DNA of 64,000 nucleotides from a virus. Below, in pieces: positions 9,255 through 35,759 of the stretch. The DNA lies in IMG/VR virus record IMGVR_UViG_3300035670_000075, positions 1 to 64,000 of that record; one strand, written 5' to 3'. A program made the position numbers and the translations under genes. The notes beneath the pieces are model-generated. The model saw nothing but the letters and a program-made list of their open reading frames with translations. It was not told the DNA's origin and did no database searches. Within the stretch, counting starts at the first letter, position 1; every line of letters starts with the position of its first letter.

Positions 9255-10091
9255 CTATGACTCCTCTAACTCGAAAGCAGTGGCGAAATTATTATAGAAT
9301 GTCGGCGTCATTGCTGACGCCTGCTGCACGTTTTTGCAGATAAACGTACCATCCCGGCGCAGTGAAGCGCCAGCATCCGGGTGCAGAGAAACCAAAATAT
9401 CTCTATATCCGCCGGTAGAGTAGAACATATCGAAAAATGTTGAGCGTTCTGTTGTGCTCAGATAGCGTAAATCAAACGCCGACTTCCTGAAGCGGATACC
9501 TCTGTTTGCTCTCAATCCACCGTCGTTCATGCGGATTTGGGTATCTGTATTGACCCAGCTAATCGGCAAATCACCCCATAACGGATTTTTTTCAGGTGTG
9601 ATGTAATTGCCGCTGATTAGCCGTCCGTAGTCAAGGTGTCCGTCTTCGTTATCAGGATCGGATACAAACACGTCAACCGTGTATACCCCGCTGATTACAG
9701 TATCCAGCCAAATCACCGAAAAAGGCTCCCCCCACCCGGTAAATATCGACGCGCCAAGCTCGTCAATACCCCAGTCAAGATCGCCTAGCGATTTTATCTC
9801 ATACGCGGATTGCAAACCGCTGGCGTATAACGTGTTATCAACACTATCCTTGGCTGTAACACTCCACGTCGCCGTGGTGCTCAGGTTATGGTAAAAAAGA
9901 CCGATGACAGACAATACAGATGGTTTTGCATAAGTTATTGTCATCGTGTGCTCAGTATCAAGCACGCGGCCTTTCGGGTTTCGCCCGTCGCGCTGCAAAT
10001 TTGTTATTGGCAGCGTCGAAACAAATGCAATATCGCTGCTTAGCGTGGCGGCGTCGCTCTCGTTTGACCTGACGATTCTAATATTACTCAT
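9255..10091 (-). CDS. distal tail/baseplate protein
   Basis: Position after TMP and hub; IGLFYHNLS and YGRLISG motifs of proteobacterial siphophage tail proteins. Confidence 0.6.
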   Translation of the reverse strand: MSNIRIVRSNESDAATLSSDIAFVSTLPITNLQRDGRNPKGRVLDTEHTMTITYAKPSVLSVIGLFYHNLSTTATWSVTAKDSVDNTLYASGLQSAYEIKSLGDLDWGIDELGASIFTGWGEPFSVIWLDTVISGVYTVDVFVSDPDNEDGHLDYGRLISGNYITPEKNPLWGDLPISWVNTDTQIRMNDGGLRANRGIRFRKSAFDLRYLSTTERSTFFDMFYSTGGYRDILVSLHPDAGASLRRDGTFICKNVQQASAMTPTFYNNFATAFELEES

Positions 10092-11590
10092 GCAATAACT
10101 TTCAATTCTAGCACGTTGGTTGTCAACGATTCAGTTAAACTTATGATAACCGCGTTTTTACCAGCATCAAAGCCAAATCTTTCGGTAAATATTTTAATTG
10201 TATCACCTAAGTTTACAGTTGACGATGATATTGAGCATTTTAAGCTGTAGATAACCCTTCTCTCACCCCACAAAGTCAAGAGCCTTGACGCTTCTGCTGA
10301 TGCTTGCGTTTGGTCTTGTAGTGCTGTTTCTACAACTTTGGCGTCCGGTGATAGCGGGAACGCGGTTTTAATTGCGGTATCCTCGGCTGATACTTGACGC
10401 CATTCTTGCGCGTACAAGCCTTTTTGGTCTTCATTCAGTGAGCCAGCCAGCGAATCCTCACTTTGCGGGCTGTAGTTCTTTTTGTAGCCTACGGTGATTT
10501 TCCAGCTTGGCTCTATGATTTCTTCTACTCTAAATGAACTTTCTTCTATATCCCAGTCGTTGACTTCTATAACTGGCGATGTGCCTGGTAGTTCAAGTCG
10601 CCTGACTTTTATTTTCCCGGTTCTGTCGATGTAGTAGTAAGCGCCAACAGAGCTTAGTATAAATGAGATAACACTACTGGCGTTGTCGCCGTCCGCAACA
10701 AAAACACCCGTGGTTTGCGTACACAGGGCAGCTAAAGCTGTAAACGATGTGGCATCTATGTCGGCGCTTGGGAATTCAGTGTAATCAGTGATGATCAGCT
10801 TGGCGATCTCGGCAGCATTGGCGGTGTATACCGCAGACGGCGCAGCGCCTTTAATATCGCATGTCACCGTCCCGACGGGCTGCGCAACCAAGTCGAACGT
10901 GCCGTTGTTATGATTTTCTGTGGGCGCGCTACCGCCTGTCAGTGAAGCGCCGTTGTCTCTGATGTCGGGAAAATCGTTTAATTGCCCATCATGCCCCTGG
11001 TAGCGGTGATTTGCGTTGCTGATAAGAGGCGGTTTGGCGTTAAATATCTCCCCGAAGCTCAGTGGTATTTTGTGACCGACATCAGGCCCGGTGGTTATTT
11101 CATCGGGTTGTATTTGCGCATTCAGATACTCGTCTTTACCGCGCATAGTGAAAGAAATGGTCGTTTCATCAAAGCTTGCGTCAATGCATATGCCGCTAAA
11201 AACCAGGCGAAAATCAGATAGACCCCAGGTTTCGTCGCCACGGTAAATTCTGATCTGATGCCCAAGAAACGGGCGATCTATCCATTCATCCAAGTCGCCG
11301 TTGACATTAGATACCGATAGCTCACCCCAACCGCTTTCAGTTTCAAGTGTAATATCGCCGTTGGCAGGGTTTGGCAGTTTTAGTGAGGTCGTAAATACAG
11401 GGTATTGCTCTAAAATTGGATCATAGGAAATATTACCGTCGGTAGGCGACGAAATATAACCTGTGTTGGACGCATAAGATGTCTCTATGCCGGGTGATGT
11501 AATGTCGTACCAATCTATTTCTACCAAGATGACCCGGCGGTTTTTGTCGTTATCAAGCCATGCTTGGTACTGACTGTCGCTAATCGGCAT
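10088..11590 (-). CDS. tail tip/hub protein
   Basis: Coupled to TMP stop; KIPLSFGEIFNAKP, SVGAYYYIDRTGKI, VNLGDTIKI motifs. Confidence 0.7.
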   Translation of the reverse strand: MPISDSQYQAWLDNDKNRRVILVEIDWYDITSPGIETSYASNTGYISSPTDGNISYDPILEQYPVFTTSLKLPNPANGDITLETESGWGELSVSNVNGDLDEWIDRPFLGHQIRIYRGDETWGLSDFRLVFSGICIDASFDETTISFTMRGKDEYLNAQIQPDEITTGPDVGHKIPLSFGEIFNAKPPLISNANHRYQGHDGQLNDFPDIRDNGASLTGGSAPTENHNNGTFDLVAQPVGTVTCDIKGAAPSAVYTANAAEIAKLIITDYTEFPSADIDATSFTALAALCTQTTGVFVADGDNASSVISFILSSVGAYYYIDRTGKIKVRRLELPGTSPVIEVNDWDIEESSFRVEEIIEPSWKITVGYKKNYSPQSEDSLAGSLNEDQKGLYAQEWRQVSAEDTAIKTAFPLSPDAKVVETALQDQTQASAEASRLLTLWGERRVIYSLKCSISSSTVNLGDTIKIFTERFGFDAGKNAVIISLTESLTTNVLELKVIA

Positions 11591-14500
11591 TATTTTTTGC
11601 TCCGCGTTCTGCGCTCTTTTTCAATTTCGCGTTTAAGCGCATCCAAATCCTCTTTGCCGAGGCGCGTCAGCGCCCTTACAATGGCGTCTGTTTGCGCTTG
11701 TGCGTCACCCGCATTTTCCTCTCTCAGTGCGCGTAATTCAGCAAGTAGATCGCGCAGCAGTTGTTTTGTTTCCTCGTCGTCACCGCCGTCTGATTGTACT
11801 CTAATACCGTAATCAGACAATATACGCGAACTCACCGGATCAATAATTTTCTCGTCTTTATGAACACGCGCAACCTGATCGGCAGCAAGCCCGGCAGAAC
11901 CGGAATCATAAGACGGCAGATTGTCTATGCCGTAGGTTCTTGCGGCTTCAAATATTTTATCTATTTCTCCCGCATCAACACCGTAAGCAGTGCCAATTTG
12001 CGCTGTGCTCACATTATTGGCGATGGCGGCTTGCTCTATGTAGCGCAGCGTTTGATCGGTCAATCCGTTCTGCGCAATCTGGTTATCAGTCCATTCTCTG
12101 ATCACGGCGTATAACGCAGGGTCATCTGACTGCTGCGTTTGCACCGCTGATGATTGCTGCGCCGAGACTTGAGTAATCGCTTGCGCTGCGGCTTGAGCGG
12201 CAACTTGTGCGGCGGATTGCGAATCACTGTACGCTTGAATCTGCAATTGAACTTGCGCGGCATAATTGCCAAGCGATTCATGCATCAAGGTAACAGCGGA
12301 CGTTATTTGACCAAGCCCGATACCGATTGAGTTACCAAGATTAAACAACTCAAAGCCAAGGTCTGTTGCAGTAGCCGTACTCATGGTAAGCAGGGAGCTA
12401 TCAATGCCCTCAAGTGTCAATGCAGTTTCAGTTTTTTGCGCTTCAAGCTGCTGCTGCAAACCAACCTCAGCACCCAGCGCAATCTCATCTAAAGCCTGAA
12501 GCTGCTTGATCGCCTCATCGTATAGCTTTTGTGTTTGCGCACTGTAGACGCCATTACTTAGCGGGTCTGACGGCATTGAACCGGCGTTAGATTCAAGCTG
12601 CCCGGCAAAACCAGATAAGTCACCAGTTACCATGCTGAAAATATCGGAGTAAGGCGCTGAGCTTGCGTAAAAGCTTTGTGCTTCAGTAAGAAACTGATCC
12701 GATACGGTTTTCAGTTTAGAGATCGCGTCTTCGTCGCCGCCCTTAGCCAAATTCAGTGTTTGCCGATACTGCTTTTCAGCTTCAGCCATACGCTCCGCGT
12801 TGGTCAGCGTTGATTTGTCAGATAGCATTAAGCTGTCAACGTAATCACGCAGTTCCTTGGCGTATTTCATCAGGTTATCGTAATTTTCTTTTTGCGCCTG
12901 ATAGACCTCTTGTTCTTTGTTAAGCTGCTCATCAAGGCGGTTACTAATCAAACCTCTGACCTGCTCGGCAATCTCAAGTTGCTGCGCAAAATCTCCGCTT
13001 GCAACCGCAGAGTCGAGATCGCCTTGCAGCAAGTCTATTTGCTCGGTAACGCCAAGCCCTTCAAAGCGTTTTTTGCCGCCAATCTCTTTGATGTCATTGG
13101 CGATTGAACCGCGTAAGCTTTGCGCCGAACTGATAAGCTCTTGCGTTGCATCAAACATCGTTTGCGCCGATGTCATCACGGCGTTGCGATACTCGTCATG
13201 CACCGTAATTGCGGATTTCACACTGTCAGCATCACCGGCAACATACTGCAAAGACTCGAATGCTGATTTAGCATCGGCAAGCTTCTGTGTATCAGTCCTG
13301 AAGTCTGTAAGCTCAGTGATTTGGGCTCTCAGGTCTTGGCTCAGTTCTTCTATACCGCCAAGCATATCGCGGTATTCGCCAATCATGGTTTCAGCGTGAG
13401 ACTTAAAGATGTCGATGCGCTGCTGCTGATAAATTTCCTCGGCAACCGCAAGCGCCTGGTTATTGCCGTTAAGTCCTTCGCGCTGCTTGGCATAGCTAAG
13501 CTCTAGCTCGCGCAACTCTCTATCAATGCCTGTGAGCATCATCATTTCGCGTTCGCGTTGCAGGTCTTCTAATGCCTGATTGCCATCACTCATGACTGAT
13601 AAAGTATCGTCGGCAAAGGAGATAAATTCATCAAGCCCCATACCAAGGCTTTGAGCAAGCGCCGTTATTTCGGCGTTACTCATACTGCTTAATAGCCCGG
13701 CAATATCGGTTTCGCTAAAACCTTGATTCAATAAATCAAGCCCGGTAGTTTGCGCGGCAGTCTTGCCGTCCAAATAGGTCGAGCCAAGCTTATCGCGGAA
13801 GTCGTTTAACTTGCCTGTGGTTTCATCAACAATCTTAAGCACATCATCGGCAAAGCCCTTAAATTCTTCCAGCCCCATAGCGAAGTAACCGGCGAGTTCA
13901 ATCAGATCAGCCCCGCTCGCCTGAGATAGTATCGCGGCCAAGTCGTCAGCGCCAACATCACTGTTAATCGCTGTCATCGCGGTTTGTTGTGCTTGCGTTT
14001 GCTCGCCAAGGTATGTTTGGCGAAGGCTTTGCTGCCAATCCATTAACCCCTTCAGCGTTTCCAATACCCCATCAGCAAAACTGGTGAACTCATCATCAGC
14101 AAGCTTGAAGAATTTGGCGTAATCACGCAACTGCTCATCTGTCGCACTGGATAAAATATCGGCACTGCTCGCCGCCGTAAACCCGGTATCCTTAAGAGCT
14201 ACCGCAACTTTTTCGATGTCGCTGGATGCGCCAAGGTAGGTTTCTTTGAGTTTCTTTTGCCATTCAGCAAAATCGAACAACTCTTTAGCTGTTTCCTCTG
14301 TCGTATCTTTGGTTTCATTCAGTCCATCAAGGAAAGACTGATTCGCAGTAACAAAGCTATTCATCGGTGCGACTGCGGTATAAAGGTTCTCCGCCGCATA
14401 CCCCATTACGTCGCTGACGCCTTCAATCGCACTCTTGATTTCAGGATCGTTCATCACCTCAGCGTAAACATCAATCGCATCTTTGATTTTTTTCTTGATG

Positions 14501-17500
14501 TCAGTGTAATCTTTCTTTATTCCGCCTGAAGCATCAGCAACGTCATTGTAAAAACGAACCCCACTATCTTCAAGTTCGCCGCCAGCCGTTGCGCCGGATG
14601 CCGTCAAATTAGCGCCCGCCGCCGTGCCTCCGGTGATAATCATGTTTGATTGCGCGATAGTGCCGTTAATCATTGGCATGATTACGCCCTGCATAATCAT
14701 TTGCGATACGGAGTTGAACACGGTATCCATCATGCGCTCGGCAAACATCGCCGAAAATGCGTGGCTGGCGCGCTGTCCGGCTTCTTCCGCGCTGGATGCG
14801 TCCATGACGGATGACTTTAGGATGCCTGATACATCGCTGGCGCTGAATTGGTTACGCAAATCCAATAACTGCGAAGCAAACACTTGGACTTCAGTGCCGA
14901 ATTCCGCGAGTGAGTTGACATAGCTGATTACAGCCTCTTGATTTGCCGCCAGTTGCAAAGCCAGTTTCTTATGCGACTCGTTTTCCATGTCGAGGGAGTT
15001 CATCAGGTTCTCCATCTCGATAGCGTTACGAGGCACAGCAATACCAAGTTCATCAAAGGTTTGCAGGATATTGGATTCGCTGATTTCACGCCCGGCTTTA
15101 TTGAATACAGCAAGGCGTTGCTCAAACTCGGTAGAGAAGTTGGTAGCCAAAGCTTGAATATTCTCTACGCCGACACCCTGCACGTCATCAAAGGTAAGCC
15201 CACCTGCGCCTTTTACGCCGAGGTCTTTCAGCGTATCCGTCAAATCTTTTAACCCTTCTTTGGCGGTATAAAACACACCCATCTGACCTGCCATTGAAGT
15301 CAGTGCATTGTAGGCGTTCTGCCCTTCTACCGTAGTCAGGTCAAGCGATTCCACCAGCAAGCGGTATTGCTCACGGGTTGCCGGTAAGCCGTCCGCGCTC
15401 ATCTGAATACCATTCGCGGCGGCAATTGCATCAATGCCGAAGTTACTGAAGATGTTGGCGAACTGCGCCGATGTGGTAGCAAACTGCTTGCTATTGCGCT
15501 CTGACTCGGAATAGAAATTCTCGTAGAACGATTGCGTGTTTGCTGTCAGCGTGCCAAGCCCGCCTGACAGGTCAATAAACTCCTTGGTCAGTAAGTTGAC
15601 ATCGAACCCCGCCTGCTGGAACACAGTGCCAAGCTGCTGGAAGTCACCGGCAATCTGGTTAAAGTTGTCACCCGTCAACTCATCACCAAGCCCCTGCATG
15701 TACGTCAACATGGCTTTGTTTACGCCGGTCATTTTACTGGCGTCGAGATGTTGAATAGCGAATTGCAATGCGTCTTGCCCAGTTTCTTCCATCCAGGTTT
15801 GCAACTGCTCTTGCAAGTCGTCCTTGCCTTTAACGTCAAGCTCAGGATTAAATTCGGCTTGGAATATAGTCAAAATATCCTGTCCAAACATCTGCCCAAC
15901 GCTGGATACCATGCTGTCAAGTTGCGAAGCAAATGCGGCAAGCGGGTCATAAACGCCCTTCGCCATTTCAGCATAACCAACCCAGTCACCTGTAAGTTGA
16001 TCCTTGGTTCCGGTTCCAAATCCACCTGTCTCTGCATTATAGGCGTCATATTGGTGTCTGCGACCCCCAAAGGTTTTCTTTCTACTTCTATTAACACCAA
16101 CCTCTACGTCACGCAGACTACCTTTTGCTGAAATATCATCCAAGCGGTATGATTTGTCGAAACTCACAAAACTGCTCAGCGCCTTGATTGCAAAGCCAGC
16201 GGCAGTACCCCACCCAGGTATCATTGAAACACCAGCCGCAATACCGTCTACAATACCCTTCTGCCAGTTACCATTAGCAAAGCTAAGCAAGGATGACCCA
16301 ATATCCATCCACGGCACAGAACCAAGCTTGCCAAGCCCACCAGAAGAACTGAATAGCTTGTCCATGCCAAGCGACTTGCCGATATTTCCAAGCTTCTCCA
16401 TTCCCCAGTCTTTGATGCCGCCTAGCCACTTGGTTGCATCAGGAAAAGACTTACTGACCCATCCTTTCGCCGTATCCCACATACCGCTAATGCCGGTCTT
16501 CATGGATTTTGCAACGTCGCCACCAAACAAGCCTTCGTTCTGCGCCTGAATCATCTCGTCTTGCTGCGAACCAGGGACAGTCCAATTCTGCGGTGCCGCG
16601 CCAATCATCGCCGCCGCGTTCATGCTTTGTGCTGCAAGCATGTTAAAGCTTTGTGCCACCGCACCAGCGGAGTTAACCACTTCCATGTCAGCCGCAACGC
16701 GCGGATTCGATTCTTGTCCGAACAACTGATCCAGCACTGAATCCACTTGCTTCTTGTACATTGCTGTCAGGCGTTGGGTGAACATGTCTTTCAGCGAATT
16801 TCCCATGTCCTTGAAGCCGTCACTGGCGGATTTTTGCCCGGACATAATTTCAGCGAAACTCTGCGACACGGCATCTTGCACGCCGTACCAGAAGTCTTGC
16901 GATTCTTTAACTGAGTCGATGTACTCGCGCTGCGCCAGGATTAAGTTTTGCGTGCCTTCGTCGGCGTGCTGCAAGCCTTGGTCACGCAGGTAGTTGTAAT
17001 CCGTCTGCTCCTTGCGCGACATGCCGAGTAGCTTCAATTCCTCGTTCATGCCGTCAATCACGCCAGCCAAGTTTGCGCGGTCTTTCTCCAGCGCTAACTG
17101 TTGGATTTTTTCTTTGTTGAGATTCGCCGCCGCCTTGCCGTGCTTCTGCTCATACTCGAACAGCAGTTGTTGGTAAGTGGTCAGCGACTTGTTGTTCTTA
17201 ATCCTTTCAACTTCCAGCGCCTTCAGTTCATTGGCAACATCCGCCTGCGCGTTCATCGCCTGCACGCCAAGGATCGTCCCCGCGTCAACGCCTTTGTCTT
17301 TTTGCTCGTAAGCGAACTTCTCGCCTTCGCTCATGCCCGCTACAGCCAGGTTTTTCGAGGCGTCCTGAAGGAGTTTGGCGGCTTCGGCTTGTTTACGCAG
17401 TTCGACAGTGCGATTCACCAAGTCCATGTTCGACTTGACCACTTCTGCGCCGTATTCGTTTTCCAGGTCGAGAATAAACCGCTGATCCTCGGTTATATTG

Positions 17501-29500: not shown

Positions 29501-32500
29501 GTTGAATCAAGGTTGCGAAATACTCTGGTGAATTTGTTTATCGCTTCGTTTGCGCCATCTATTCCGCCAATGTAGTCGGTTATACGATCTTTCAGTTCCA
29601 GCAATTCTTTACTAAAAAACGACAGCAACAGCACGATCAGGCTCAGTGTCGATGTCGCTGGGTTAAGCATCAACAAGAACGATGCAAAGCCCATGATCTG
29701 CTGCAAGCCCGCTGCCGTACTTGCGGTGTCTGATAGCATATCGACAAACGCGCTCCACAACAGAGAAAAGTCGCCAATATCCCTCATCACCACGGCAAAT
29801 GAGGCGGGTACTTCCTGATAGACGCGAGACAGTCTGATCAGCGCATCCGCAAACATAAAGATAACGGGAATGCTGACGCCAAAGGTGCGCAGCATGAACT
29901 GGTCAACTTGCGCCAGCGCGGTGAGGAACTGGAACGACACCATTGATAAGTCGCGGAAGGCGTTAGCCAGCATTGGGAAAATTGCCAGCGCCGCTTTACT
30001 CAGGGTCGGGATTGACTTGAATAGCGCAGCGAAGAAGCGTCCGATTTGCTCCCACGCAGAACCTTGACCAAGCCTGACCAGTTGCGCATTCAGTGCGTCG
30101 ATAAAGTAGTTCAACGGCTGAATGAACATGCGATTCATCAAAAATTGCAGGTGGGTAGCGTTTTTCGGCCAGACGGCGGTGAAGATTTCCAGTACGCTTT
30201 CTGCCACTTGGCTTAATATCGGACCCCACTGGACGATGGTGCGAGATAGTGCGGGGAATCTTGATGCCAACGTGTAGGTGAAGTCATCAACGCCAGCCAA
30301 GATTGCCGCCCAAATACGCGGTTGGTTTTTGGCGAATGAGTTGGTGACGTTGTAAATCTGTTTCAGGTTTGCATGTAATGTCGCACGAACGCGATCAACT
30401 TGCCCGTAAGTGCTGGTAGCATAGGCTTTCTTGCTCATCAGGTTTTGCGGGAACAAGGCAACCAACAGCACTTTAGCCAAGTCTGCTACGGGTATCTTGT
30501 GCGTCATCAAGAACTGCAATCGCTTGATGGCCGCAAAGTACGCCGGATATACCGCATTGACCAGCGAGTAATTGAAGTAATCGTGAACTTTGCCGCCGAC
30601 ACCGAAAATACTCAGCGCCCAGTCGCGCACATGGGTTAGGAAGATATGCGCAAAGGGGAATTGCTGCATCAGGTTATTGGTCAGCGTAATCAGGCTGCGC
30701 AAAACACTGGCGAAAATTTGCAGTGAGGCGTGATGTAGTGCTTCAGCCAGCGTGTAAAACGCTGCACGCAGTTGTCTCCAGGCGCGAAGGTTTTTGATGT
30801 AGCGCATCAATCCGCCCATCTCGCCAAAATACATGCGCCCGATTTCTTGGAACATGCCGGAAAGCAGGAACAGCGATACCATCTCGAAATTAAAGATAGC
30901 CTCTTGCAGCAGCGTCCCCATGTCGCCAAACAAATCTTTAATCAGCCCACCAAAAGCGTTACCCATATCAGCAAAGAAATTGCCGTTGACGAAGGCGGTA
31001 AAGAAGTTGCGGGTGAAGCGCAAGAGTGACCGGGTAACATTGACAGTGAAGTTATCAATGGCATCGATAAAGTTGGTGGCAGCTTTGGCGATCAGCGTGG
31101 CTACGCCAAGCAATGCGGCGACGAGCGTATCAAGCAATGCTTGCTTGATGTCGAAGTTGCCGAAGCTCAGGCTTTTCTGTAGGCGACCTAAAGCACCGCC
31201 GATTTCCTTGCTGGTTTTGTCACCTCTAAACGCTGTATCAAGCTCGTCAGAAATCCACTCGCCAATCCATACTACTGGTGTCAACAGACCTTTCTGCTGT
31301 GCCAACACGCTGTCAGCCGCGTCATGCACGGCGGCAACCGCGTCACCAAAGAAGCCGTAAGCAGACTCTTTGATGTCAACGGTTTTCTGTTCACCCATCG
31401 CAATTGACAGGTATTTAGACGGCGCGAATTGCCCAGTCGTGAGGTCGTAAATGCCTTGCCCGGTGGCATTAAGGAAGTTCTTCACGTAGCCGGTCAGGAA
31501 TACGGAAGTCATCGCCGTGCCAAAGGAGATAGCGCTAAGCGATAGCGCCCCATTGAAGCCAGCGAATAATGGTGCGACAACCGGCATGAACTGCGCGATG
31601 GTAATGCCAGCAATGCCGATAGCCATTGCTTTAACGATGAGATCGGCAATCAACTCCCATCTGATGCTGCCGACATACTGCGCAAATCCGCGCCAAATAT
31701 TCGCCAGCGCATCACCAAACGCCGCAAAAGCTGCCGTGCCGTCAAAGATTGACAGCCCAAGCGCGGCAAACGAAATGACCAGCGTATCGAATAATGCGCC
31801 AAGCAGTTTAAGTGGAATCAGCGCTACCTTGACTGAATTCGCGAACGATTCAAATGTGACGCGCCCATCAAACAGCGCGCTAAGCGACAGCATTTTATCG
31901 AACGCCACACCGAATACGATGCCAACGGCGGCAGATAGCGACGGTCCAGCACCGAGGAAGCCAAAGGTAAACGTGTTGAGTAATGATGCCCCGGCTTTGT
32001 CGATAGTCGAGAACGGGCCTTCTTTGGCGGGGGAGTGCGGGAACAGTCTGTCAACCCATGCGAACACGTCAACAATGGCTGTCCACAGGTTTTGTGCTGC
32101 GCTGGTGACGCCAGCGGAGAAGGTTTCGATGAGCGAGGCACCGAATGCGCTGTAATCAAAATTCATTGCTGAGTACAGCACACCGCCAATAATCAGCATT
32201 GATTTTTTGATAGCAGCAGCAACCGCAATTTCAACCACGCTCAGTATGGCGAAACTTTGCTGTATCGCCATTGCCGTCGCCTGTTTGCCATACGCAGACA
32301 GCGCTTTCAGTAGCAATTGCGCGCCAGGAATCGACAATCCAGCAGAGATCAGATTAACCACCCGATACCCAAGTGCCGCCCAGTCGATTTCCTTAACCCG
32401 CTTGGTGAGGTCGGTGAAGATGCCAAGCAGCGCATCACCGAGCACACTGAAACGGAATTCGCCCTTGAACAGCGTATTGATTGCCGCCGCGACAGTGCCG

Positions 32501-35500
32501 ATTAAGCGCCCGGCGATAACCAACAGGTGAACCAACGCACCCAAACCGCCAGCCATGAGTTGCATGGCGTGGGCGGCGAAGCGGAATGCTTCGGCAAGAC
32601 CTTTGCCGAGCAGCATACCAACACCCTCTCCGGCGCTGGCAAGTCCGACGAGTTCGACTTGCGCCGCGCCTGCGGTATCCATCATCAGCAGTAAACCGGC
32701 GACGGTTGGCGCAACGGCAACAGCCAGCGGCTTGAAGGCTTCGACGAGCGGCTTCATGGATTGCGCCATGTTGTTCAGAAAGTCGGTATCGTGAAAGGCC
32801 GAGAAAACCCCGCTTAGATGGTCGCCAAACACGCGCAATTCTGCGCTGACAATTTTCAGCGACGGCAACATGCCCTGCATCAGTCCGGTGAAGAACGGCT
32901 CAACTGCAATCCAAGCGCGGGCGAAACCCTCGCCAGCCGCGCGACCGAATGAGGCAAAATAACCAATCGCCACGCCCATTACGTCGATGGTAGCGACCAG
33001 CAGTTTCGTCCAGCCGTCAAGCGCTGCCATGAGCACGCCGCCGATGATTTTGCCGAGGAAGTGGGCGGAACCGGCGAAGAATACCAGGGTGCTGCGGCTG
33101 TCTTGGCTGGCAGCATCAAGCCCTAACAGCATGGACACAAAGCGCTGCACGGCGGCGATGACGGGGGCAAGCGCAGTGGTGATCGGCTCGAAGGCGGCGG
33201 CTAGAGCGCCTTGGATGGTCAGTAGAGCATCACCAAGCGGGCTGAGTGCGTCGAGCAAACCTTTGCCGAAGTAGATTGCCATGTATTTGCCGACTTCAGC
33301 GGCAAAGGCAATCACGTTGCGCAGCGGGCGTGTCAGCAGTTCTACATAACCAGCGGCAACCGCCGCAACTTCACCCATAAACTTGAATGCATTGGTCAGG
33401 CGGATGATTCCGTTTGTACCTGACTGCGTAAGGAATCTGAGCGCAGGAGAAAGCCCTGAGTAAATCGTCAACTGAAGCTCTGACAATGCTGATTTATACA
33501 ACCGCACATCGCCAGCCAGGTTTTCCAGGCGGGTTTTCGCCATCATTTCAGAGGTTTGGCTGTCAACATTCTTCAGGCTGTCGGCGTAACTCCCCATTTC
33601 CTTAGTCGCGCTACCAGTGGCTTTAACCAGCACATCCATTACGGTTAGCGCGTTCATACCGAAAATGCGCTTGTAAATACCTGCTCTATCAGCCTCATCC
33701 AAGTGCGCTGTGCGCTCTCTGATCTCCGTGAGGAGTTCGGTCATGGACTTCATGCCGCCCGTGGAGTTCTTGGCGCTGACACCGATTGCGCTTAATGCGC
33801 CGCCAACATCGTCAGCCAAGGCTTCGAGGTCGCCGATGTCGTCACCGGCTTCAATCATTTGGTTGGCAAATTTCTGAAAATCTTTATCGGCAATCTTGGT
33901 CGGTGCTGCCAGGCGCAGTAATGCTTGGCGTAAGGCTGTGCCTGACATGGAGCCTTTCAGTGCGGCGTCGCCAGCCAAGCCGATTGCGGCTGACATTTCT
34001 TCAAACGACATACCCAGTGATTCTGAAATTGGCGCGACGTACTTGGCTGATTCGTAGAACTGTTCGAGATTGACGTTACTGGTGCTCATCACTTTGGCGA
34101 ATACATCGACCATGTGCGGCAGTTCGTCAACGCTCTTGCCGAAGCCTGTCATCAGGTCTGATACGATGTCTGATGTCCGCGCCAACTCAGTGCCACCGGC
34201 AGCGGCGAGATTCAGCACCTCGCCTGTAGATTTCATGATTTGCTGCGTGCTGAAGCCGGCCATCCCAAGGTAATATTGCGCGTCTGCCGCTTCTTTAGCG
34301 GTAAATGCGGTTGCTTGCCCCAGGCTGCGTGCCTGGTCTTCCAGTAGCTTAAGCTCTTTGCGTCCGTCTCCGGTATTGATGTTGATACCTTTGACGGCGG
34401 CGACACTGGCAATCGCTTCCTCGAACGCCATGCCAGTATTGACAATGGCATCGAAGCTCTTGGTGAGCGTGCGAAAACCAACCACAGCCGCCGCGACCGC
34501 ACCGCCGACCAAGGCTGTTTTGGCAATCAGGCGACCCAAAGAGGCTTCGCCAACCTTGGCGCTGCCGGACATGTCTTTGATGTCGGCGTTAAATTCTTTG
34601 ATGTGTTTGCCGGATGTTTGATAGGCGGATGCCGCGCCGGACTTGAACGAACCCCAAAAACCTGCGAGTTGCGCCGGGGCTGATTTTAGGAATGAAGCAA
34701 AGCTTGAGAATGCGTCTTTGAAGGAGAAATTTTTGATGAAATTCGCAATGCCGCTACCAGCGCTGCGGAGCATAGTGACGAAGTTGGCGACTGTCAGTTG
34801 GCTGCGATCAAAGTTCTGCGCCATCGTCCACGCGGCGACGCTGGTGGCAATGATTTTGGCTTGGACGAACGAGGCGATACGCGCCAGCCTGTCTAAGCTG
34901 ACGTATGAAATTACTAAAATATTGTTCAAGCCGGAGAGCGTTTGCATGATCACACTGACTTTGGTAAACGTGTTCATGCTTTGCGCCAACCCGTAAGTGG
35001 CAACGGCAAGCTTAGCAATCTCCTCACGGTTGCGAACTGCACTAACCGCCATGCTTGCCAACATTAAACTGTGACCACTGCTGGCGGCGGTCGCCTCGCG
35101 GGTGGCTGCGGTGTTTTCTTTTAACGCTTGGGTATCTGCTTGCGTGTTCGCGGCAACAGGCGCAGGTAGAGCCGCAATTTTTTCTCTCTCGGCACGAAGT
35201 TCTTGGAAAGACTTGATGAGTTCTTCATTCGCCTGCTTCAGTTTTTGCGTAGAAGTCAATGCGTCGTCGAGTGCTTTGACGCCGTCTCCATCGACAGACA
35301 CGGTGATTTTTTGATTGATTACCGCCGTCCCGCCAATCCCTGCTGCCTTTTTGCCGGTCTTGTCCAGTTCTTTGTTGAGTTCACGCACTTGCTTGGTGAT
35401 GTTGCCGATAGCGGACGCGGATTGGTTTAGGCTTTTCGCGTCTAGTGCGCCACTGACTTTGACGGCATTCTTCTGGAACTGCTCGAACTCGCGTGCGGTT

Positions 35501-35700
35501 TTGGCAAGCTCGGCAAATTGCGCCAAGCCCTCCATGCTTTTCGCCATGCGCTCGGCGTCTTGCATCATCCTCCGCGTGGACTTGTCGAACCGCTCGGCAG
35601 TACGCTCGGCGGCTTCGCCAAGCTTGTCAACTTTCTTGCCAGCGCGATCAATGTCGCTTTCGTTGACGCCAATTTTGTATTCCAAGTCGTGTTCTTGCAT
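11590..35700 (-). CDS. giant tail tape measure protein (8036 aa)
   Basis: TP901-type TMP core at about 33480-34430 (ARSLGQATAFTAKEAADAQYYLGMAG, NVNLEQFYESAKYVAP, LKGSMSGTALR, RLENLAGD); long Ala/Gly-rich amphipathic tracts; C-terminal LPSYDSGS...VHKDEKII; followed by tail-tip genes. Confidence 0.92.
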   Translation of the reverse strand: MQEHDLEYKIGVNESDIDRAGKKVDKLGEAAERTAERFDKSTRRMMQDAERMAKSMEGLAQFAELAKTAREFEQFQKNAVKVSGALDAKSLNQSASAIGNITKQVRELNKELDKTGKKAAGIGGTAVINQKITVSVDGDGVKALDDALTSTQKLKQANEELIKSFQELRAEREKIAALPAPVAANTQADTQALKENTAATREATAASSGHSLMLASMAVSAVRNREEIAKLAVATYGLAQSMNTFTKVSVIMQTLSGLNNILVISYVSLDRLARIASFVQAKIIATSVAAWTMAQNFDRSQLTVANFVTMLRSAGSGIANFIKNFSFKDAFSSFASFLKSAPAQLAGFWGSFKSGAASAYQTSGKHIKEFNADIKDMSGSAKVGEASLGRLIAKTALVGGAVAAAVVGFRTLTKSFDAIVNTGMAFEEAIASVAAVKGININTGDGRKELKLLEDQARSLGQATAFTAKEAADAQYYLGMAGFSTQQIMKSTGEVLNLAAAGGTELARTSDIVSDLMTGFGKSVDELPHMVDVFAKVMSTSNVNLEQFYESAKYVAPISESLGMSFEEMSAAIGLAGDAALKGSMSGTALRQALLRLAAPTKIADKDFQKFANQMIEAGDDIGDLEALADDVGGALSAIGVSAKNSTGGMKSMTELLTEIRERTAHLDEADRAGIYKRIFGMNALTVMDVLVKATGSATKEMGSYADSLKNVDSQTSEMMAKTRLENLAGDVRLYKSALSELQLTIYSGLSPALRFLTQSGTNGIIRLTNAFKFMGEVAAVAAGYVELLTRPLRNVIAFAAEVGKYMAIYFGKGLLDALSPLGDALLTIQGALAAAFEPITTALAPVIAAVQRFVSMLLGLDAASQDSRSTLVFFAGSAHFLGKIIGGVLMAALDGWTKLLVATIDVMGVAIGYFASFGRAAGEGFARAWIAVEPFFTGLMQGMLPSLKIVSAELRVFGDHLSGVFSAFHDTDFLNNMAQSMKPLVEAFKPLAVAVAPTVAGLLLMMDTAGAAQVELVGLASAGEGVGMLLGKGLAEAFRFAAHAMQLMAGGLGALVHLLVIAGRLIGTVAAAINTLFKGEFRFSVLGDALLGIFTDLTKRVKEIDWAALGYRVVNLISAGLSIPGAQLLLKALSAYGKQATAMAIQQSFAILSVVEIAVAAAIKKSMLIIGGVLYSAMNFDYSAFGASLIETFSAGVTSAAQNLWTAIVDVFAWVDRLFPHSPAKEGPFSTIDKAGASLLNTFTFGFLGAGPSLSAAVGIVFGVAFDKMLSLSALFDGRVTFESFANSVKVALIPLKLLGALFDTLVISFAALGLSIFDGTAAFAAFGDALANIWRGFAQYVGSIRWELIADLIVKAMAIGIAGITIAQFMPVVAPLFAGFNGALSLSAISFGTAMTSVFLTGYVKNFLNATGQGIYDLTTGQFAPSKYLSIAMGEQKTVDIKESAYGFFGDAVAAVHDAADSVLAQQKGLLTPVVWIGEWISDELDTAFRGDKTSKEIGGALGRLQKSLSFGNFDIKQALLDTLVAALLGVATLIAKAATNFIDAIDNFTVNVTRSLLRFTRNFFTAFVNGNFFADMGNAFGGLIKDLFGDMGTLLQEAIFNFEMVSLFLLSGMFQEIGRMYFGEMGGLMRYIKNLRAWRQLRAAFYTLAEALHHASLQIFASVLRSLITLTNNLMQQFPFAHIFLTHVRDWALSIFGVGGKVHDYFNYSLVNAVYPAYFAAIKRLQFLMTHKIPVADLAKVLLVALFPQNLMSKKAYATSTYGQVDRVRATLHANLKQIYNVTNSFAKNQPRIWAAILAGVDDFTYTLASRFPALSRTIVQWGPILSQVAESVLEIFTAVWPKNATHLQFLMNRMFIQPLNYFIDALNAQLVRLGQGSAWEQIGRFFAALFKSIPTLSKAALAIFPMLANAFRDLSMVSFQFLTALAQVDQFMLRTFGVSIPVIFMFADALIRLSRVYQEVPASFAVVMRDIGDFSLLWSAFVDMLSDTASTAAGLQQIMGFASFLLMLNPATSTLSLIVLLLSFFSKELLELKDRITDYIGGIDGANEAINKFTRVFRNLDSTRVRVQEGIKSFYMELSKGTLYASVAIQYLIIGISSLASAAAAVSFGAPTIAALAFGSAIGYIVMSIIEFTGSIDKAWEALSEMPKQDKAKNIFDTLNQEAGLFGQNILSIISDLRSQSSTLDKIFSAIIFALKGIAIISASVATASLAINLGAPVAVAYMLAGAVSFAAAKILWFSEAIIGTWESMGDLGQKVFSALSFEFANLALAFMIHPLAPVVIGLIRVIYAFRGEIAQFGQTIADLWENNTVFRYSVIAIVGSLAIFTSASFLAAAASANLFMVFSTLGGTALGALAVFHDEIVVVFKVIDVLLTAISNALATPIGVILALINYLSELAGFLQIISSPFKLFAAYIEEVFGIDVSGFAHDFIGATQDIAETIKTYLIGALILLGGVLTALAVKWAFNWKRMASAKAKAADYINKNPILMAFGVDDKTVRKNMLAGAKNANEILRGAFCNNKDISKCFGAGVAKGSKSARKSVGNLFKSSDIADKISKGVSDGVNDGVGRSQGIFSRLFKADVNFGDGQQKLTETINRINKLSQMQRELSSEISKYGKGAVLGDSSFTQPRKGRRVSIDDEVMKAARVNDKAAIELLQRVAFLEKEKADGRKTMDHQGFSGKAEAKRMTEILEKYERTHRLSAKDWAQVHKDMPKHYKQASGELRSASHELFRNQERGYQLASDEASARILSAKAQRDLVKGELESLKKQRQAIEDNLRKQGKGFWGKSADDELAKIVNRGVRKGMNLEDVLSKQQRVIDKHYKAVAEKASGKAIWFDFGKMIENFFKRWDVAMKRITNPKWLLKRAALSNDGVEEYIANRKREHAVVMNNIKAEREARKAAIAAGRKALFDEAVRSQQGVFSQRMADYQSASNVGILKLRTEETTQTRQDSAARLADRIRVANEELAIMQRKAEKLNAVLGDSQKTRNIAKAIEFQKKLISEHEKQLRVMQGINSATVKTAKTTESVVNEQQKVTKAVKQTASARKGIDVDGYAFTKQTKKPATHWKNDADFYSTVKSYDPIQPKFKPKRYAATLSELEQLQKLNLSQINKFNKETERKIQAMWGGLSEERNRLIASVDKMVKPSGSKEPIPLNEYINKKLTDYRGRLDKELDLFESEQRAKAQNLKGKNLLNKATQESMLQAEKSGVKVFEARAPGKSPKMTKEFMALREQMRKQIVSNFVTEHQAALTAFKKMQSKRERAYLEQLLVGNLRGKDEAGKSLMPVKFSIDALEDTYDLQEKTIRAKRAASLDALDRYYVQEQQRIAIGAGHGVKERLDAEGKLQSQLDVYRESSKAADVRFYENQVYGLKTYKESVEKEIRSLGMRNSDLAWDKKRAKENKEESDLISKQIKANHDRVNLLNEHLRTINKEGKEALSALKQIEPYYKGTTIRSIDSLPQRRVDSELPIKNTNAEFKKMLGEDSATIREITALTHEIRRLNTKLDLFTKENRAFANRLGALTRKEKKSPLSTDELKERAELQRNIKRNQEFRDETNKELRALESKLKSNTADPARGIKTGKCIPVCGYSQSTSKMQKQVDAHLADLKARVPELSKAIGEVKLTKFGERELSMLRPDVAADRLQRGEVTPGLARYNETTGKTDIFLNKAAFKMSKMADNLAVLSHEAGHALDNHLSRTDSKRHAAFVAANKDAFAQVSAYAKTNSREAFAEAFRATVHGAPVGGMGSVANRQSPIANYGDAAPGIAAYNKELTNTTHQSQLVNQQLSRFPTLTKAGSAGLKTMSFALKGVALAASFATGMIGAMAMEMAFMFAFEYIMNNMDDIKFEFMYMVDTVKKYLGIMEAALVAFSSSPWVAPLISSLDAVTRQIRENFTNSMSYVANFATQAQQSLQTLFSGMDYSAMLVSLRGMFDVAAVAVRDGVDYLYKLFTDMLSSLALAIGDTFSSEVTGALLHATQTTGEHITKGNVWVFDGVTGGIISALAPAGAALAASNNPLAQGAVALGNNISGAFHSLPPRVQDALKALLVELTFATRAIKFISNGLKRGISAIFDAFGENIVRAVEPIREGVAQIKSAVSGLSLNAKMPSLGAFKLPEIKLPSLNLATVTDGIGNAFKAAFTTVKGAVQSGLDGAIQYAKGLWTGFINWLKTTENGLIAPVRSAFDKLRGIFDEIKLLSESIAARWNGMWSPVQNIVKAISADMLVILALTMKFGAAAGIWGGFAVAVVKLAWAFREELLSAVQSVWLAIKDIGSSLYNLWNGLGEGGQMLVMITAGIMGAYTAIKMFAIPAIVAFMATLTPMQLMAARLSIAFTLIAALKDDWAAFAEEHKVLANTIAWSIGIFVGVPVVMLAMQNAYILARTAVTAYQLAQIAASKVTQASMLTLIKGTAIWRGWALAVMVATSPVTATVLAVAAGVAVLVAALYGLYKVGKLIVGTLLAIPKATLGIGAAIITTIAEGVASAAQSLWDAISGVFGWVWNLFPGSDAKEGPFSSLTASGMGMMQAFSEGITNGAKYLWDAVKSAFSGAIDWVKSLFGKPELSIPEVSMPKAGGKPVANDEFQKSLEYVDNDLRRIIDKENELAVAVKQVNQAAVDAAESLRQRKIAEEIQSLSKESKKVAQEQRKEIEKLDKEIGKLGFSDEMIKLNELRDTLAKGKEGWFGIGGSDALGADAVAREIEVVASLMQERVAKEAIKEIQQDINKLKKDELNTSDAISTLREIGAGNNNIHLQRLQAVIKEREELEQAAEATKQRAQAEKEALKAIQDTEKAIAQAGMSERDKFVDDLLRQNISVDVAMNLVSKRDQSESAKYLAAAQEKLLQESMTERGWAKYQAELQGVDAETIMLTETIYDQVDAEKARKMAAEDAVRAQKELTDSYKSKIQAARDELALSKLTGHALELEKIRRDIGAKATLEQAKSLYDLQAAQQKQVISKYLAGDDSLKEQAKQASAMLAEYNKFIAEENNLAEARKRNNELFKNIAQEQEGIANQSMLGIVTGGFGNLDMVKSYWADLGTSIVSTFSGAWQSVHDTWMGLFDSETRAINKRNAEFDAMAKRGESMALPEINSDYEKLLFGIGIALVPLIAGFAGFAGANLQVAAAISVVTAGLSFFSGVISPVIDSVMNTEDSFGALSDVLLTTVAPIGLLALNIIKLERGAKNGASLIGMLLAPTEILRNLMSGLSDVMAKRLKLGFVIVISILSLLVSLADNAYDRFFVLFKVLFSLSTILIGLRTVFVALEAGISSSNAKLKILFGVLSMVGGAAVMLGSVFGRLDDSIKQAGGETARFWLDFYKNISAGEAVMYAAMLGFASSIVMSMLTALNAKFTATFLVSFVANYMKSVLAAFASGGALSALSAAMQPLLLTLGMLIGKVQLLSASFAVAYKQGGLMAGMQAILAPLTTLWNALTLGVFRYSAATIGASKTTAMFSFVARVAAGAMALLSASMGAFTTIVTMISLAGAATAVYVDGWSALLGPIEQGIKLLAVITAFSLAFFRTQTIWLIKTTALWLAQNTMLGRAVTWYGLMAVSALRASAAGRVAAAAMSSAWAAALLPITMIIVAVMAIGDAFFGIESPISDALDIARSYVTDFYEWVANIDWSGIFTGIRDSAFGVLAKFSGHDFTDLDESAKNINTRTQMVQGKVVTPEVENLRSKVFDDKVSEIRLKKQEEELGKWQKRQKEIFDQLHEDSKGWFSDKASKEEISKLSEILMLEEQVGELKKMNADIDKEIANLGLDAVTIKINQMKEEGWKGDLKSYEQKLRDKALIEGYIDAENKRSQALALSVKMSISLAEAQKRMKMAQEGVTEAGANEAIHREKLNNFNEELNTLMSEQKNIGLTDEQIKLNQLTEDYGSRILAQVVQNIQNANAAMGDMRSHMQDITNSIKGMADEMATLGMNSADAQLFQDQQRIAKNIADMRAAPNADQAAIAAEEERLKNLAQVRRDVSIITEHQKEQHKLQQAISFAGLDELQRYREERKLIYGNIAGAEAMVEADVRRKAAEMAINQAKIDGAKAAKDSAKEEKKELSESEKLREKLNKQVIEHNLVMGNITEDQRFILDLENEYGAEVVKSNMDLVNRTVELRKQAEAAKLLQDASKNLAVAGMSEGEKFAYEQKDKGVDAGTILGVQAMNAQADVANELKALEVERIKNNKSLTTYQQLLFEYEQKHGKAAANLNKEKIQQLALEKDRANLAGVIDGMNEELKLLGMSRKEQTDYNYLRDQGLQHADEGTQNLILAQREYIDSVKESQDFWYGVQDAVSQSFAEIMSGQKSASDGFKDMGNSLKDMFTQRLTAMYKKQVDSVLDQLFGQESNPRVAADMEVVNSAGAVAQSFNMLAAQSMNAAAMIGAAPQNWTVPGSQQDEMIQAQNEGLFGGDVAKSMKTGISGMWDTAKGWVSKSFPDATKWLGGIKDWGMEKLGNIGKSLGMDKLFSSSGGLGKLGSVPWMDIGSSLLSFANGNWQKGIVDGIAAGVSMIPGWGTAAGFAIKALSSFVSFDKSYRLDDISAKGSLRDVEVGVNRSRKKTFGGRRHQYDAYNAETGGFGTGTKDQLTGDWVGYAEMAKGVYDPLAAFASQLDSMVSSVGQMFGQDILTIFQAEFNPELDVKGKDDLQEQLQTWMEETGQDALQFAIQHLDASKMTGVNKAMLTYMQGLGDELTGDNFNQIAGDFQQLGTVFQQAGFDVNLLTKEFIDLSGGLGTLTANTQSFYENFYSESERNSKQFATTSAQFANIFSNFGIDAIAAANGIQMSADGLPATREQYRLLVESLDLTTVEGQNAYNALTSMAGQMGVFYTAKEGLKDLTDTLKDLGVKGAGGLTFDDVQGVGVENIQALATNFSTEFEQRLAVFNKAGREISESNILQTFDELGIAVPRNAIEMENLMNSLDMENESHKKLALQLAANQEAVISYVNSLAEFGTEVQVFASQLLDLRNQFSASDVSGILKSSVMDASSAEEAGQRASHAFSAMFAERMMDTVFNSVSQMIMQGVIMPMINGTIAQSNMIITGGTAAGANLTASGATAGGELEDSGVRFYNDVADASGGIKKDYTDIKKKIKDAIDVYAEVMNDPEIKSAIEGVSDVMGYAAENLYTAVAPMNSFVTANQSFLDGLNETKDTTEETAKELFDFAEWQKKLKETYLGASSDIEKVAVALKDTGFTAASSADILSSATDEQLRDYAKFFKLADDEFTSFADGVLETLKGLMDWQQSLRQTYLGEQTQAQQTAMTAINSDVGADDLAAILSQASGADLIELAGYFAMGLEEFKGFADDVLKIVDETTGKLNDFRDKLGSTYLDGKTAAQTTGLDLLNQGFSETDIAGLLSSMSNAEITALAQSLGMGLDEFISFADDTLSVMSDGNQALEDLQREREMMMLTGIDRELRELELSYAKQREGLNGNNQALAVAEEIYQQQRIDIFKSHAETMIGEYRDMLGGIEELSQDLRAQITELTDFRTDTQKLADAKSAFESLQYVAGDADSVKSAITVHDEYRNAVMTSAQTMFDATQELISSAQSLRGSIANDIKEIGGKKRFEGLGVTEQIDLLQGDLDSAVASGDFAQQLEIAEQVRGLISNRLDEQLNKEQEVYQAQKENYDNLMKYAKELRDYVDSLMLSDKSTLTNAERMAEAEKQYRQTLNLAKGGDEDAISKLKTVSDQFLTEAQSFYASSAPYSDIFSMVTGDLSGFAGQLESNAGSMPSDPLSNGVYSAQTQKLYDEAIKQLQALDEIALGAEVGLQQQLEAQKTETALTLEGIDSSLLTMSTATATDLGFELFNLGNSIGIGLGQITSAVTLMHESLGNYAAQVQLQIQAYSDSQSAAQVAAQAAAQAITQVSAQQSSAVQTQQSDDPALYAVIREWTDNQIAQNGLTDQTLRYIEQAAIANNVSTAQIGTAYGVDAGEIDKIFEAARTYGIDNLPSYDSGSAGLAADQVARVHKDEKIIDPVSSRILSDYGIRVQSDGGDDEETKQLLRDLLAELRALREENAGDAQAQTDAIVRALTRLGKEDLDALKREIEKERRTRSKK

Positions 35701-35735: not shown

Positions 35736-35744
35736 ATTATAGCA
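35736..35744 (-). promoter_or_regulatory. extended -10 promoter candidate for the TMP operon
   Basis: TGCTATAAT on the minus strand, 35 nt upstream of the TMP ATG. Confidence 0.55.
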
Positions 35745-35759
35745 TTGGTTTACTGTGTG

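Follow-up and report, generated by a model that had tools for sequence, protein, structure and literature searches.

In the model built on lambda gpH and TP901-1, a phage tape measure protein (TMP) lies extended in the lumen of the tail tube at ~0.15 nm per residue. The longest TMP studied is P23-45 gp96 (5,002 aa), which "defines the length" of an 800-nm tail, also bears transmembrane and metallopeptidase domains, and includes ~1,100 N-terminal residues that are a polymerase and not a ruler (PMC10770324, PMC10034513). The tail of P74-26 reaches nearly 1 µm, siphoviruses with extremely long tails were observed by electron microscopy in marine sediment, and no maximum TMP length was given in the 2026 homorepeat paper.

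Analysis of a 64,000-nt window (the whole stretch of DNA under study, positions 1 to 64,000 of IMG/VR record IMGVR_UViG_3300035670_000075) revealed a TMP gene of 8,036 codons, its product 60% longer than P23-45 gp96. The phage is uncultured and the gene is known from this single metagenome-derived record. Likenesses to P23-45 gp96 and the P74-26 TMP include a giant single chain with a large genome share, found there in long-tailed phages, and the combination of transmembrane-type segments with a metallopeptidase-type motif. Those two proteins are credited with tails of 0.8 to nearly 1 micrometre, whereas the giant is known from its gene alone. It displayed no detectable sequence relationship to gp96 and is without the N-terminal virion RNA polymerase of the P23-45 TMP, no DxDxD motif of that enzyme being present anywhere in its 8,036 residues. 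The features of the locus are as follows:

11590..35700, minus strand: giant TMP gene of 8,036 codons and a stop, accounting for 22.9% of the 105,387-bp record
35736..35763, minus strand: sigma-70-like promoter match, TCAACA-16 nt-TATAAT with TG (consensus match only)
31891..35700, minus strand: aa 1-1270, equivalent of a whole ordinary TP901-type TMP, from colinear homologues and PHROG TMP families
33658..34341, minus strand: PF10145 (PhageMin_Tail) domain, aa 454-681, present once in the TMP
28306..33213, minus strand: hydrophobic helix cluster 1, aa ~830-2465, strongly periodic at the helical repeat and containing ~33 hydrophobic 19-mers
31897..32280, minus strand: motif copy 1, aa 1141-1268, containing FPHSPAKEGPFS, internal paralogue of copy 2
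24751..28203, minus strand: charged helical spacer 1, aa ~2500-3650, 30-37% D/E/K/R
24481..24783, minus strand: zincin-like signature, aa ~3640-3740, with the single HExxH of the TMP, below the Pfam cut-off
22276..23073, minus strand: hydrophobic helix cluster 2, aa ~4210-4475
22036..22422, minus strand: motif copy 2, aa 4427-4555, containing FPGSDAKEGPFS, 45% identical to copy 1
20551..22023, minus strand: charged helical spacer 2, aa ~4560-5050, a paralogue of spacer 3
18946..20433, minus strand: hydrophobic helix cluster 3, aa ~5090-5585, with the lowest GC3 of the gene
16861..18903, minus strand: charged helical spacer 3, aa ~5600-6280
15217..15591, minus strand: conserved block A, aa 6704-6828, common to TMPs of ~1,600-2,100 aa
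13591..14298, minus strand: three repeats of 75-79 aa in tandem, aa ~7135-7370, within the ~600-aa insertion that separates blocks A and B
12271..13335, minus strand: conserved block B, aa 7456-7810, common to the vB_MaeS-yong1 TMP and 24 IMG/VR TMPs
10088..11590, minus strand: 500-aa tail-tip protein, phrog_8917, its ATG overlapping the TMP stop (TAATG)
9255..10091, minus strand: 278-aa tail-tip protein, phrog_8610, from the next gene in the conserved cassette
7843..9252, minus strand: two genes with tail-fiber-like C-terminal parts, 244 and 220 aa (phrog_892 and phrog_31104, weak)

The gene begins with ATG and continues on the minus strand across 24 kb with zero internal stops. Its open frame exceeds the ORF by 3 codons only, so that this ATG is the first possible start, and its first residues, MQEHDLEYK, aligned with the beginning of an independent homologue fragment (P0004). 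In every 500-codon window, the coding signal was higher in this frame than in the other two, and the gene resembled the other 55 genes of the genome in codon use. The uninterrupted 24-kb ORF of 8036 aa proposed in the sequence-only reading was thus upheld in start, stop, frame, and coding signal.

The first 1,270 residues comprise a charged N-terminus, a core that begins at approximately aa 350, hydrophobic helices, and an "AKEGPF" motif. A canonical TMP core had been read from the letters and was corroborated by PF10145 (aa 454-681; 151.9 bits against a cut-off of 33.2), TIGR01760 (aa 412-773; 162.8 bits against 28.8), and 14 PHROG TMP families with E-values down to 1e-75. The N-terminal end was colinear with the metagenomic 1,164-aa protein P0005 (29% identity, aa 53-1107) and with the fragments P0004 (42%, aa 1-579) and P0003 (37%, aa 409-1181), placing aa 1-1270 alongside the TP901-1-type TMPs (TIGR01760/PF10145) with closest relatives at 29-42% identity. 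Core domain, hydrophobic helices, and the "AKEGPF" motif are common to these proteins and the giant, and the copy-1 motif (FPHSPAKEGPFS) sits near the C-terminal end in ordinary 800-980-aa TMPs. However, ordinary TP901-1-type TMPs end at 400-1,900 aa (409-1,924 aa among the N-end relatives) while the giant runs 6,700 residues further and terminates in the C-terminal part of another TMP class.

That C-terminal module, the last ~1,350 residues, was colinear with the C-terminal part of ordinary TMPs of 1,000-2,400 residues. It is common to the 2,073-aa TMP of Microcystis phage vB_MaeS-yong1 (MT855965) and to TMPs of 957-2,377 aa on 24 IMG/VR contigs (L006-L029), with 25-37% identity across yong1 and the IMG/VR relatives. 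Several C-end-related proteins carry PF20155 and not PF10145. Block B lies at an equal distance from the C-terminal end in the giant, the yong1 TMP, and the 24 IMG/VR TMPs, whereas blocks A and B are 644 aa apart in the giant compared to 40-90 aa in the relatives, from which the ~600-aa insertion is absent. Homologous tail-tip genes of ~500 and ~278 aa follow the TMP in yong1 and the IMG/VR relatives, with a homologue of the 500-aa gene 3' of the TMP in yong1 and at 19 of 24 IMG/VR loci (best E 6.5e-50). Two further claims of the sequence-only reading were therefore sound, namely a canonical C-terminus (colinear over aa 7456-7810 with yong1 and the 24 IMG/VR TMPs) and tail-tip genes downstream (both the 278-aa and the 500-aa gene are conserved immediately 3' of the TMP in the relatives). 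The C-terminal part of the giant is translationally coupled to this conserved tail-tip cassette.

Relatives found at either end were all shorter than the giant, by about 4-8x (3.4-8x for the TMPs of yong1 and the 24 IMG/VR contigs). A near-length search for relatives above 4,400 aa (4,419-14,063 aa; query aa 200-1500) returned only P0002 (4,863 aa), which is barely related and has its similarity confined to the TMP core. The 500-aa neighbor, TMP core, and TMP C-terminal end as single-protein queries gave no related loci in viral contigs, and the N-end alignment A1 had no match in metagenome contigs or viral contigs. Alignment A2 identified only an ordinary TMP in a WOR-3 MAG among genome contigs, a 33-mer taken from the gene had no exact match in metagenome contigs or viral contigs, and megablast of 40-64 kb had none in the phage collection.

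Between the two TMP ends, ~5,400 interior residues for which no relatives were found consist of three hydrophobic helix clusters alternating with charged helical spacers of ~1,150, 500, and 700 residues. The giant contains ~1.6% proline and 54 hydrophobic 19-mers, and hydrophobicity at the helical period exceeded that of shuffles in nine of ten blocks (z 2.4-17.9). An AF2 model of aa 6250-7449 was all-helix with low confidence (pLDDT 38.5; only secondary structure used). No domain was identified in aa 1,600-8,036 by Pfam, PHROG, or NCBIfam other than the weak zincin and one weak TMP match. Parts of the interior are paralogous: motif copies 1 and 2 (aa 1141-1268 and 4427-4555) matched with E 1e-17 to 6e-17, and spacer 2 matched spacer 3 (4593-4894 versus 5787-6174) with E 1.5e-6 to 2e-4. 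The internal duplications are judged to be old and evolutionary rather than an artefact, because the motif copies combine 45% protein identity with no DNA identity. The only four cysteines of the TMP bracket spacer 1 as two tight pairs (C2520/C2528 and C3583/C3587), an arrangement with a chance of ~1e-5.

The zincin-like site includes H3685-E-A-G-H3689 followed by Y3720 and E3727 within YAKTNSREAFAEAFR, and H3685, E3686, H3689, Y3720, and E3727 line up with residues that bind zinc or take part in catalysis in anthrax lethal factor. The likeness to lethal factor-type zincins (ATLF, PF07737) lies in an HExxH with Y..TN..E.FAEAFR ~35-45 residues on, but the match is sub-cut-off (17.1 bits against 27.4 for the ATLF model). 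A PDB sequence match to the region had an E-value of 0.025, and ~0.035 HExxH motifs would be expected by chance in the TMP (arithmetic from its His and Glu counts). No homologues of the region were found, an Atlas search gave no match, and single-sequence AF2 reached an unusable pLDDT of 40. Nothing suggests a toxin role for the putative zincin, which in a TMP more likely cuts wall or envelope material or processes the protein itself. T5 Pb2 is another TMP with a metallopeptidase motif.

The reading preferred here, with a probability of roughly 0.6, is that of a single intact TMP gene of a ~105-kb temperate phage with a probably non-contractile tail, enlarged to 8,036 residues as TMP-type modules were added and, long ago, duplicated within it, whose product would be the ruler of a ~1.2-micrometre tail. 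No tail sheath was recognized, and no second, ordinary-length TMP gene was found in the 105-kb record. Since the protein both starts and finishes as a TMP, the intervening chain is expected to run through the tail tube, which favors a real ruler. The sequence-only reading had left a choice between a very long tail and a polyprotein or non-measuring cargo; the first is better supported, by both TMP ends and by an interior with low proline, helical periodicity, and no recognizable globular domain beyond the weak ~100-residue zincin signature, and the second gained only slight support, with neither DxDxD nor any domain in aa 1,600-8,036 beyond the weak zincin and TMP matches.

As in the lambda gpH and TP901-1 model, a TMP trimer would dock by its C-terminal end on the tip complex and tube subunits would polymerize along it until the N-terminal end was reached. 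All residues between the ends would then be extended in the tube lumen at ~0.15 nm each, which predicts a tail ~1.2 micrometres long; scaling from P23-45 (800 nm for 5,002 aa) raises the estimate to 1.3. During infection, the TMP would be ejected and its hydrophobic clusters would enter the envelope as a conduit for DNA. The zincin-like domain may cleave part of the cell wall or envelope, a role that has been suggested for metallopeptidase motifs in other TMPs. The gene illustrates how giant TMPs arise through module accretion, duplication, and C-terminal capping: an ordinary TMP unit may have gained duplicated hydrophobic-plus-spacer modules and tandem repeats and been capped by the C-terminal module of another class. 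If the ruler rule holds, the tail would be ~30-50% longer than that of the record holder P74-26, and the known limits of tube assembly, DNA transit distance, and the chaperoning of a protein with ~40 hydrophobic helices would be extended. A more elaborate version, tentative and put at well below even odds, is a non-contractile tail of ~1.2-1.4 micrometres, the longest of any virus, in which the three clusters, spaced by rigid helical spacers of ~75-170 nm, would, once ejected, serve as a conduit with several stations across a host envelope of many layers or unusual thickness and the zincin would cut the path or process the TMP.

Several observations count against the giant ruler. No giant relative was found, with N-end relatives of 409-1,924 aa and C-end relatives of 957-2,377 aa, and the AF2 folds were of low confidence. 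The G/GT-type chaperone pair is absent directly upstream of the TMP, and a divergent plus-strand island (35839-40227; DNA methyltransferase and tmRNA) lies between the TMP and the remainder of the tail module. Among the minus-strand genes at 40436-58141, none was recognized as encoding a chaperone or tube protein; a 432-aa gene there (56220-57518) is without phage or Pfam match and has only unnamed viral look-alikes.

It is also conceivable, though on balance unlikely, that the protein is a genuine TMP of which much does not measure, owing to fold-back (e.g., spacer 1 doubling back in an antiparallel hairpin held by the cysteine pairs), cleavage during assembly, or use as an ejected effector or conduit, with a tail much shorter than 1.2 micrometres. 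Colinearity of aa 1-1270 with a complete 1,164-aa TMP, ending in the motif usual near the C-terminal end, suggests that the remainder might serve otherwise; the tight cysteine pairs at the ends of spacer 1 could mark the fold-back; the zincin-like signature could be a self-processing or effector protease; and the ~1,100 polymerase residues of the P23-45 TMP offer a precedent (PMC10770324, PMC10034513). However, a TMP-type C-terminal end and tip cassette at the far end of the chain place the interior topologically between tip and head, helical periodicity extends almost throughout, the polymerase motif is absent, and no globular domain was detectable in ~6,000 residues except the weak zincin signature.

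Very unlikely is an artefact, whether a chimeric join of genes from different phages or neighboring genes fused by lost stops or indels in a metagenome contig. It would fit the single metagenome-derived record, of which an independent copy was searched for and none found, the resemblance of the N- and C-terminal ends to different TMP classes, and a GC3 that varies in patches from 0.37 to 0.66 within the gene. Nevertheless, the other genes display equal patchiness (0.33-0.68), 24 kb are stop-free in one frame with coding signal everywhere, and the deep internal paralogy (45% protein identity without DNA identity) also argues against it. Mosaicism is ordinary among phage TMPs. No notable direct or inverted DNA repeats were found in the gene, the longest being 38 nt at 71%, and none are shared that would allow assembler switching. 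Misassembly joining several TMP genes therefore appears unlikely from the sequence, given a single TMP core and no repeats to mis-join.

Least credible of all is a decaying, non-functional gene of a defective element unrelated to any real tail, to which the two integrases of what may be a prophage and the plus-strand island interrupting the tail module could point, since a stop-free frame of 8,036 codons that keeps its coding bias cannot last unless selected for, and the record, with an estimated CheckV completeness of ~95%, carries intact head, tail-tip, and replication genes. The sigma-70-like promoter match sits 36 nt 5' of the TMP ATG and is overlapped by a divergent match on the plus strand.

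[quoted passage not shown] A 5,002-aa TMP is termed 'giant' in the literature, phAss-1 group TMPs measure 3,149-3,209 aa, and no published TMP above 5,002 aa was found in the searchable literature. The protein stands out by its size, by combining parts of two TMP classes, and by having relatives that are all of ordinary length.

The N-terminal end carries the canonical TMP core expected from the sequence-only reading, as confirmed by PF10145 (aa 454-681, E 2.6e-44; Pfam), TIGR01760 (aa 412-773, E 1.1e-47; NCBIfam), and 14 PHROG tape-measure families covering aa ~350-1,200. When aa 250-1449 were compared exhaustively with 1.84 billion representatives by phmmer, 34,045 relatives were returned, the best 150 of which were 409-1,924 aa long. 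The three closest relatives among the matches listed were P0004, a 603-aa fragment from a 2.6-kb contig that shares the N-terminus of the giant and is 42% identical to its aa 1-579; P0003, a fragment from a 2.4-kb contig that matches aa 409-1181 at 37% identity; and the 1,164-aa P0005/P0153, present at equal length on contigs of 7 and 11 kb and colinear with aa 53-1107 at 29% identity. Since these relatives are colinear and ordinary 800-980-aa TMPs carry the motif ...SPAKEGPFS... (aa 1225 in the giant) close to their C-end, aa 1-1270 is the equivalent of an entire ordinary TMP.

The C-terminal end belongs to a different set of relatives. The last 1,736 residues had only two tblastn matches in 50,697 phage records, both cyanobacterial siphovirus TMPs, including the 2,073-aa TMP of Microcystis phage vB_MaeS-yong1 (31% identity, E 1e-22, equal distance from the C-end). 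A protein search with aa 6250-8036 identified six TMPs of 1,659-1,922 aa that match colinearly in block A (aa 6704-6828) and block B (aa 7456-7781), and an alignment-based IMG/VR scan placed the module on 24 contigs with TMP ORFs of 957-2,377 aa, none of the 24 running off the locus upstream. The proposed tail-tip genes downstream were likewise recovered: a homologue of the 500-aa gene (10088..11590 -) directly follows the TMP in 19 of these contigs (E down to 6.5e-50) and in vB_MaeS-yong1 (512-aa 'tail protein', E 1e-16), and the 278-aa gene (9255..10091 -) is present in at least ten. Because module and tip genes are shared with ordinary TMP loci, the C-terminus, already regarded as canonical, is by homology a working TMP C-end joined to a conserved tip cassette.

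Division of the giant TMP by hydropathy and charge profiles, with its cysteine pairs
aa 1-200, charged segment
aa 200-800, TMP core
aa ~830-2465, hydrophobic cluster 1
aa ~2500-3650, charged spacer 1
C2520/C2528 (window 28117-28143), cysteine pair CX7C
C3583/C3587 (window 24940-24954), cysteine pair CX3C
aa ~3640-3740, zincin-like signature
aa ~4210-4475, hydrophobic cluster 2
aa ~4560-5050, charged spacer 2
aa ~5090-5585, hydrophobic cluster 3
aa ~5600-6280, charged spacer 3
aa 6280-8036, mixed character

Proline content is ~1.6%, and a hydrophobicity period of 3.5-3.67 residues stands well above shuffles in nine of ten blocks (maximum z 17.9 in cluster 1; the exception is spacer 3, z 1.2). 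AF2, run on the single sequence of aa 6250-7449, predicts helices throughout and no strand, which is weak support at a pLDDT of 38.5. Past aa 1,600, the only matches in Pfam, PHROG, and NCBIfam are a weak one to phrog_58 (TMP, aa ~4181-4556) and a sub-threshold one to ATLF. Sensitive self-comparison revealed old paralogy: aa 1141-1268 pairs with aa 4427-4549 (E 1e-17, 45% identity), spacer 2 with spacer 3 (aa 4593-4894 with aa 5787-6174, E between 1.5e-6 and 2e-4), and aa 2092-2153 with aa 2198-2259. A further pair (aa 7134-7210/aa 7291-7364) is part of three tandem 75-79-aa repeats within a ~600-aa insertion between blocks A and B, whose gap is 644 aa compared to 40-90 aa in relatives. Cysteine occurs just four times in the 8,036 residues, as two close pairs flanking the 1,150-residue spacer 1. 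This arrangement has a chance of ~1e-5, and the pairs may act as a metal or disulfide clasp.

In the lambda gpH/TP901-1 model, the TMP is seated in the tip complex by its C-end, and the tube extends along the protein and halts at the N-end. As both ends are recognizable as TMP ends, the interior would be topologically within the tube, such that ~6,000 residues would lie inside it. The predicted tail is ~1.2 micrometres at 0.15 nm per helical residue or ~1.3 micrometres at the ratio of Thermus phage P23-45 (800-nm tail, 5,002-aa TMP; PMC10770324, PMC10034513). Particles with tails of ~1.2-1.3 micrometres are plausible since siphoviruses whose tails are extremely long have been seen by electron microscopy in Baltic sediment. 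The 'S' in vB_MaeS conventionally denotes siphovirus morphology; given this name of a relative and that no sheath gene was recognized, the predicted tail is taken as probably non-contractile. The length estimate is weakened by chaperone and tube genes not being found, by a plus-strand island separating the TMP from the other tail genes, and by processing that is not predictable from sequence. It is also weakened by a possible metal- or disulfide-pinned hairpin at spacer 1, which the CX7C and CX3C pairs at opposite ends could mark and which would shorten the tail by ~80 nm. Between the long tail and the non-measuring cargo that the sequence-only reading had offered, the two TMP ends favor the long tail, while cargo gained no support from a P23-45-like polymerase signature, none being present in the giant TMP in contrast to the shorter P23-45 protein.

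The sole HExxH in the protein is H3685-E-A-G-H3689, compared to a chance count of ~0.035 reckoned from its His and Glu content. Thirty-one residues past H3689 lies YAKTNSREAFAEAFR. Both the Pfam ATLF model and a PDB sequence search matched it to the active-site Tyr and Glu of lethal factor (HEFGH ... YGRTNEAEFFAEAFR), with weak scores: 17.1 bits for ATLF, where the cut-off is 27.4, and E 0.025 for the PDB match. No homologue of the region was found among 8,000 scored candidates or in the ESM Atlas, and its predicted fold was unusable at pLDDT 40. A small metallopeptidase domain is probable, and such a domain has a precedent in the TMP P23-45 gp96. A toxin identity was set aside, the lethal factor likeness being read as metallopeptidase instead.

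The window covers bases 1-64000 of a linear IMG/VR virus record of 105,387 bp (~95% complete per CheckV), 22.9% of which is taken up by the gene. Its open frame spans only 8,039 codons, making the annotated ATG the first possible start; a promoter-like site lies 36 nt 5' of it, and at the other end the stop and the ATG of the following gene overlap in TAATG. A log-likelihood test against codon frequencies of the genome's other 55 genes favored frame 0 in each 500-codon window (0.28-0.45 per codon), upholding the uninterrupted 24-kb ORF, and synonymous codon use resembles the rest of the genome. GC3 varies within the gene (0.37-0.66) as it does among the 40 further genes with 200 aa or more (0.33-0.68), and its patchiness is therefore a genome property. 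A low-GC3 stretch at window 18900-23100 (aa ~4200-5700; 0.37-0.49 vs ~0.6 elsewhere in the gene) spans cluster 2, spacer 2, and cluster 3, consistent with a module that came from another background or was duplicated in one. A chimeric or assembly artefact, such as the misjoining of several TMP genes of which the sequence-only reading had warned, is improbable (residual doubt ~8%): no independent copy was found by an exact 33-mer in metagenome and viral contigs, but a chimera would predict several cores where one is present and would join at shared sequence where the repeat search detected none above 38 nt at 71% identity, and protein paralogy invisible at the DNA level marks ancient duplication.

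Head genes (terminase, portal, protease, and Mu gpT-like major head protein), replication genes, two integrases, and a tmRNA indicate, from gene content, a single coherent temperate phage with a probable proteobacterial host.

Features of the genome context
35839-40227 (+), island with several small ORFs, interrupting the minus-strand tail genes immediately 5' of the TMP
36783-37688, DNA methyltransferase within the island
38578-38914, tmRNA within the island, tag ANDERYAVAA
40768-45048 (-), three overlapping genes that separate the island from the remaining tail genes
45697-47331 (+) and 45727-47328 (-), opposite-strand ORFs on the same DNA, each >530 codons
52751-53320 (-), 189-aa protein in the tail region, BTLCP (PF06035), E 2.8e-13
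59687-60610 (-), Mu gpT-type major head protein, 307 aa, 53% identity to Vibrio and Pseudomonas D3112-like phages
G000 87689-90094 (L003:3689-6094), two adjacent tyrosine-integrase genes on opposite strands

The phages with the matching head protein are 37-40 kb compared to the 105-kb record, reflecting either a larger capsid triangulation number or a record size in need of checking. The three overlapping genes encode an SLT transglycosylase protein (366 aa), a family-less protein (595 aa), and an FtsK/SpoIIIE-type ATPase (467 aa), and could conceivably handle or translocate the giant TMP. BTLCP is the bacterial transglutaminase-like cysteine proteinase family. The minus-strand member of the opposite-strand ORFs matched phrog_290 (minor tail protein, E 7e-10) and its plus-strand partner had no family match.
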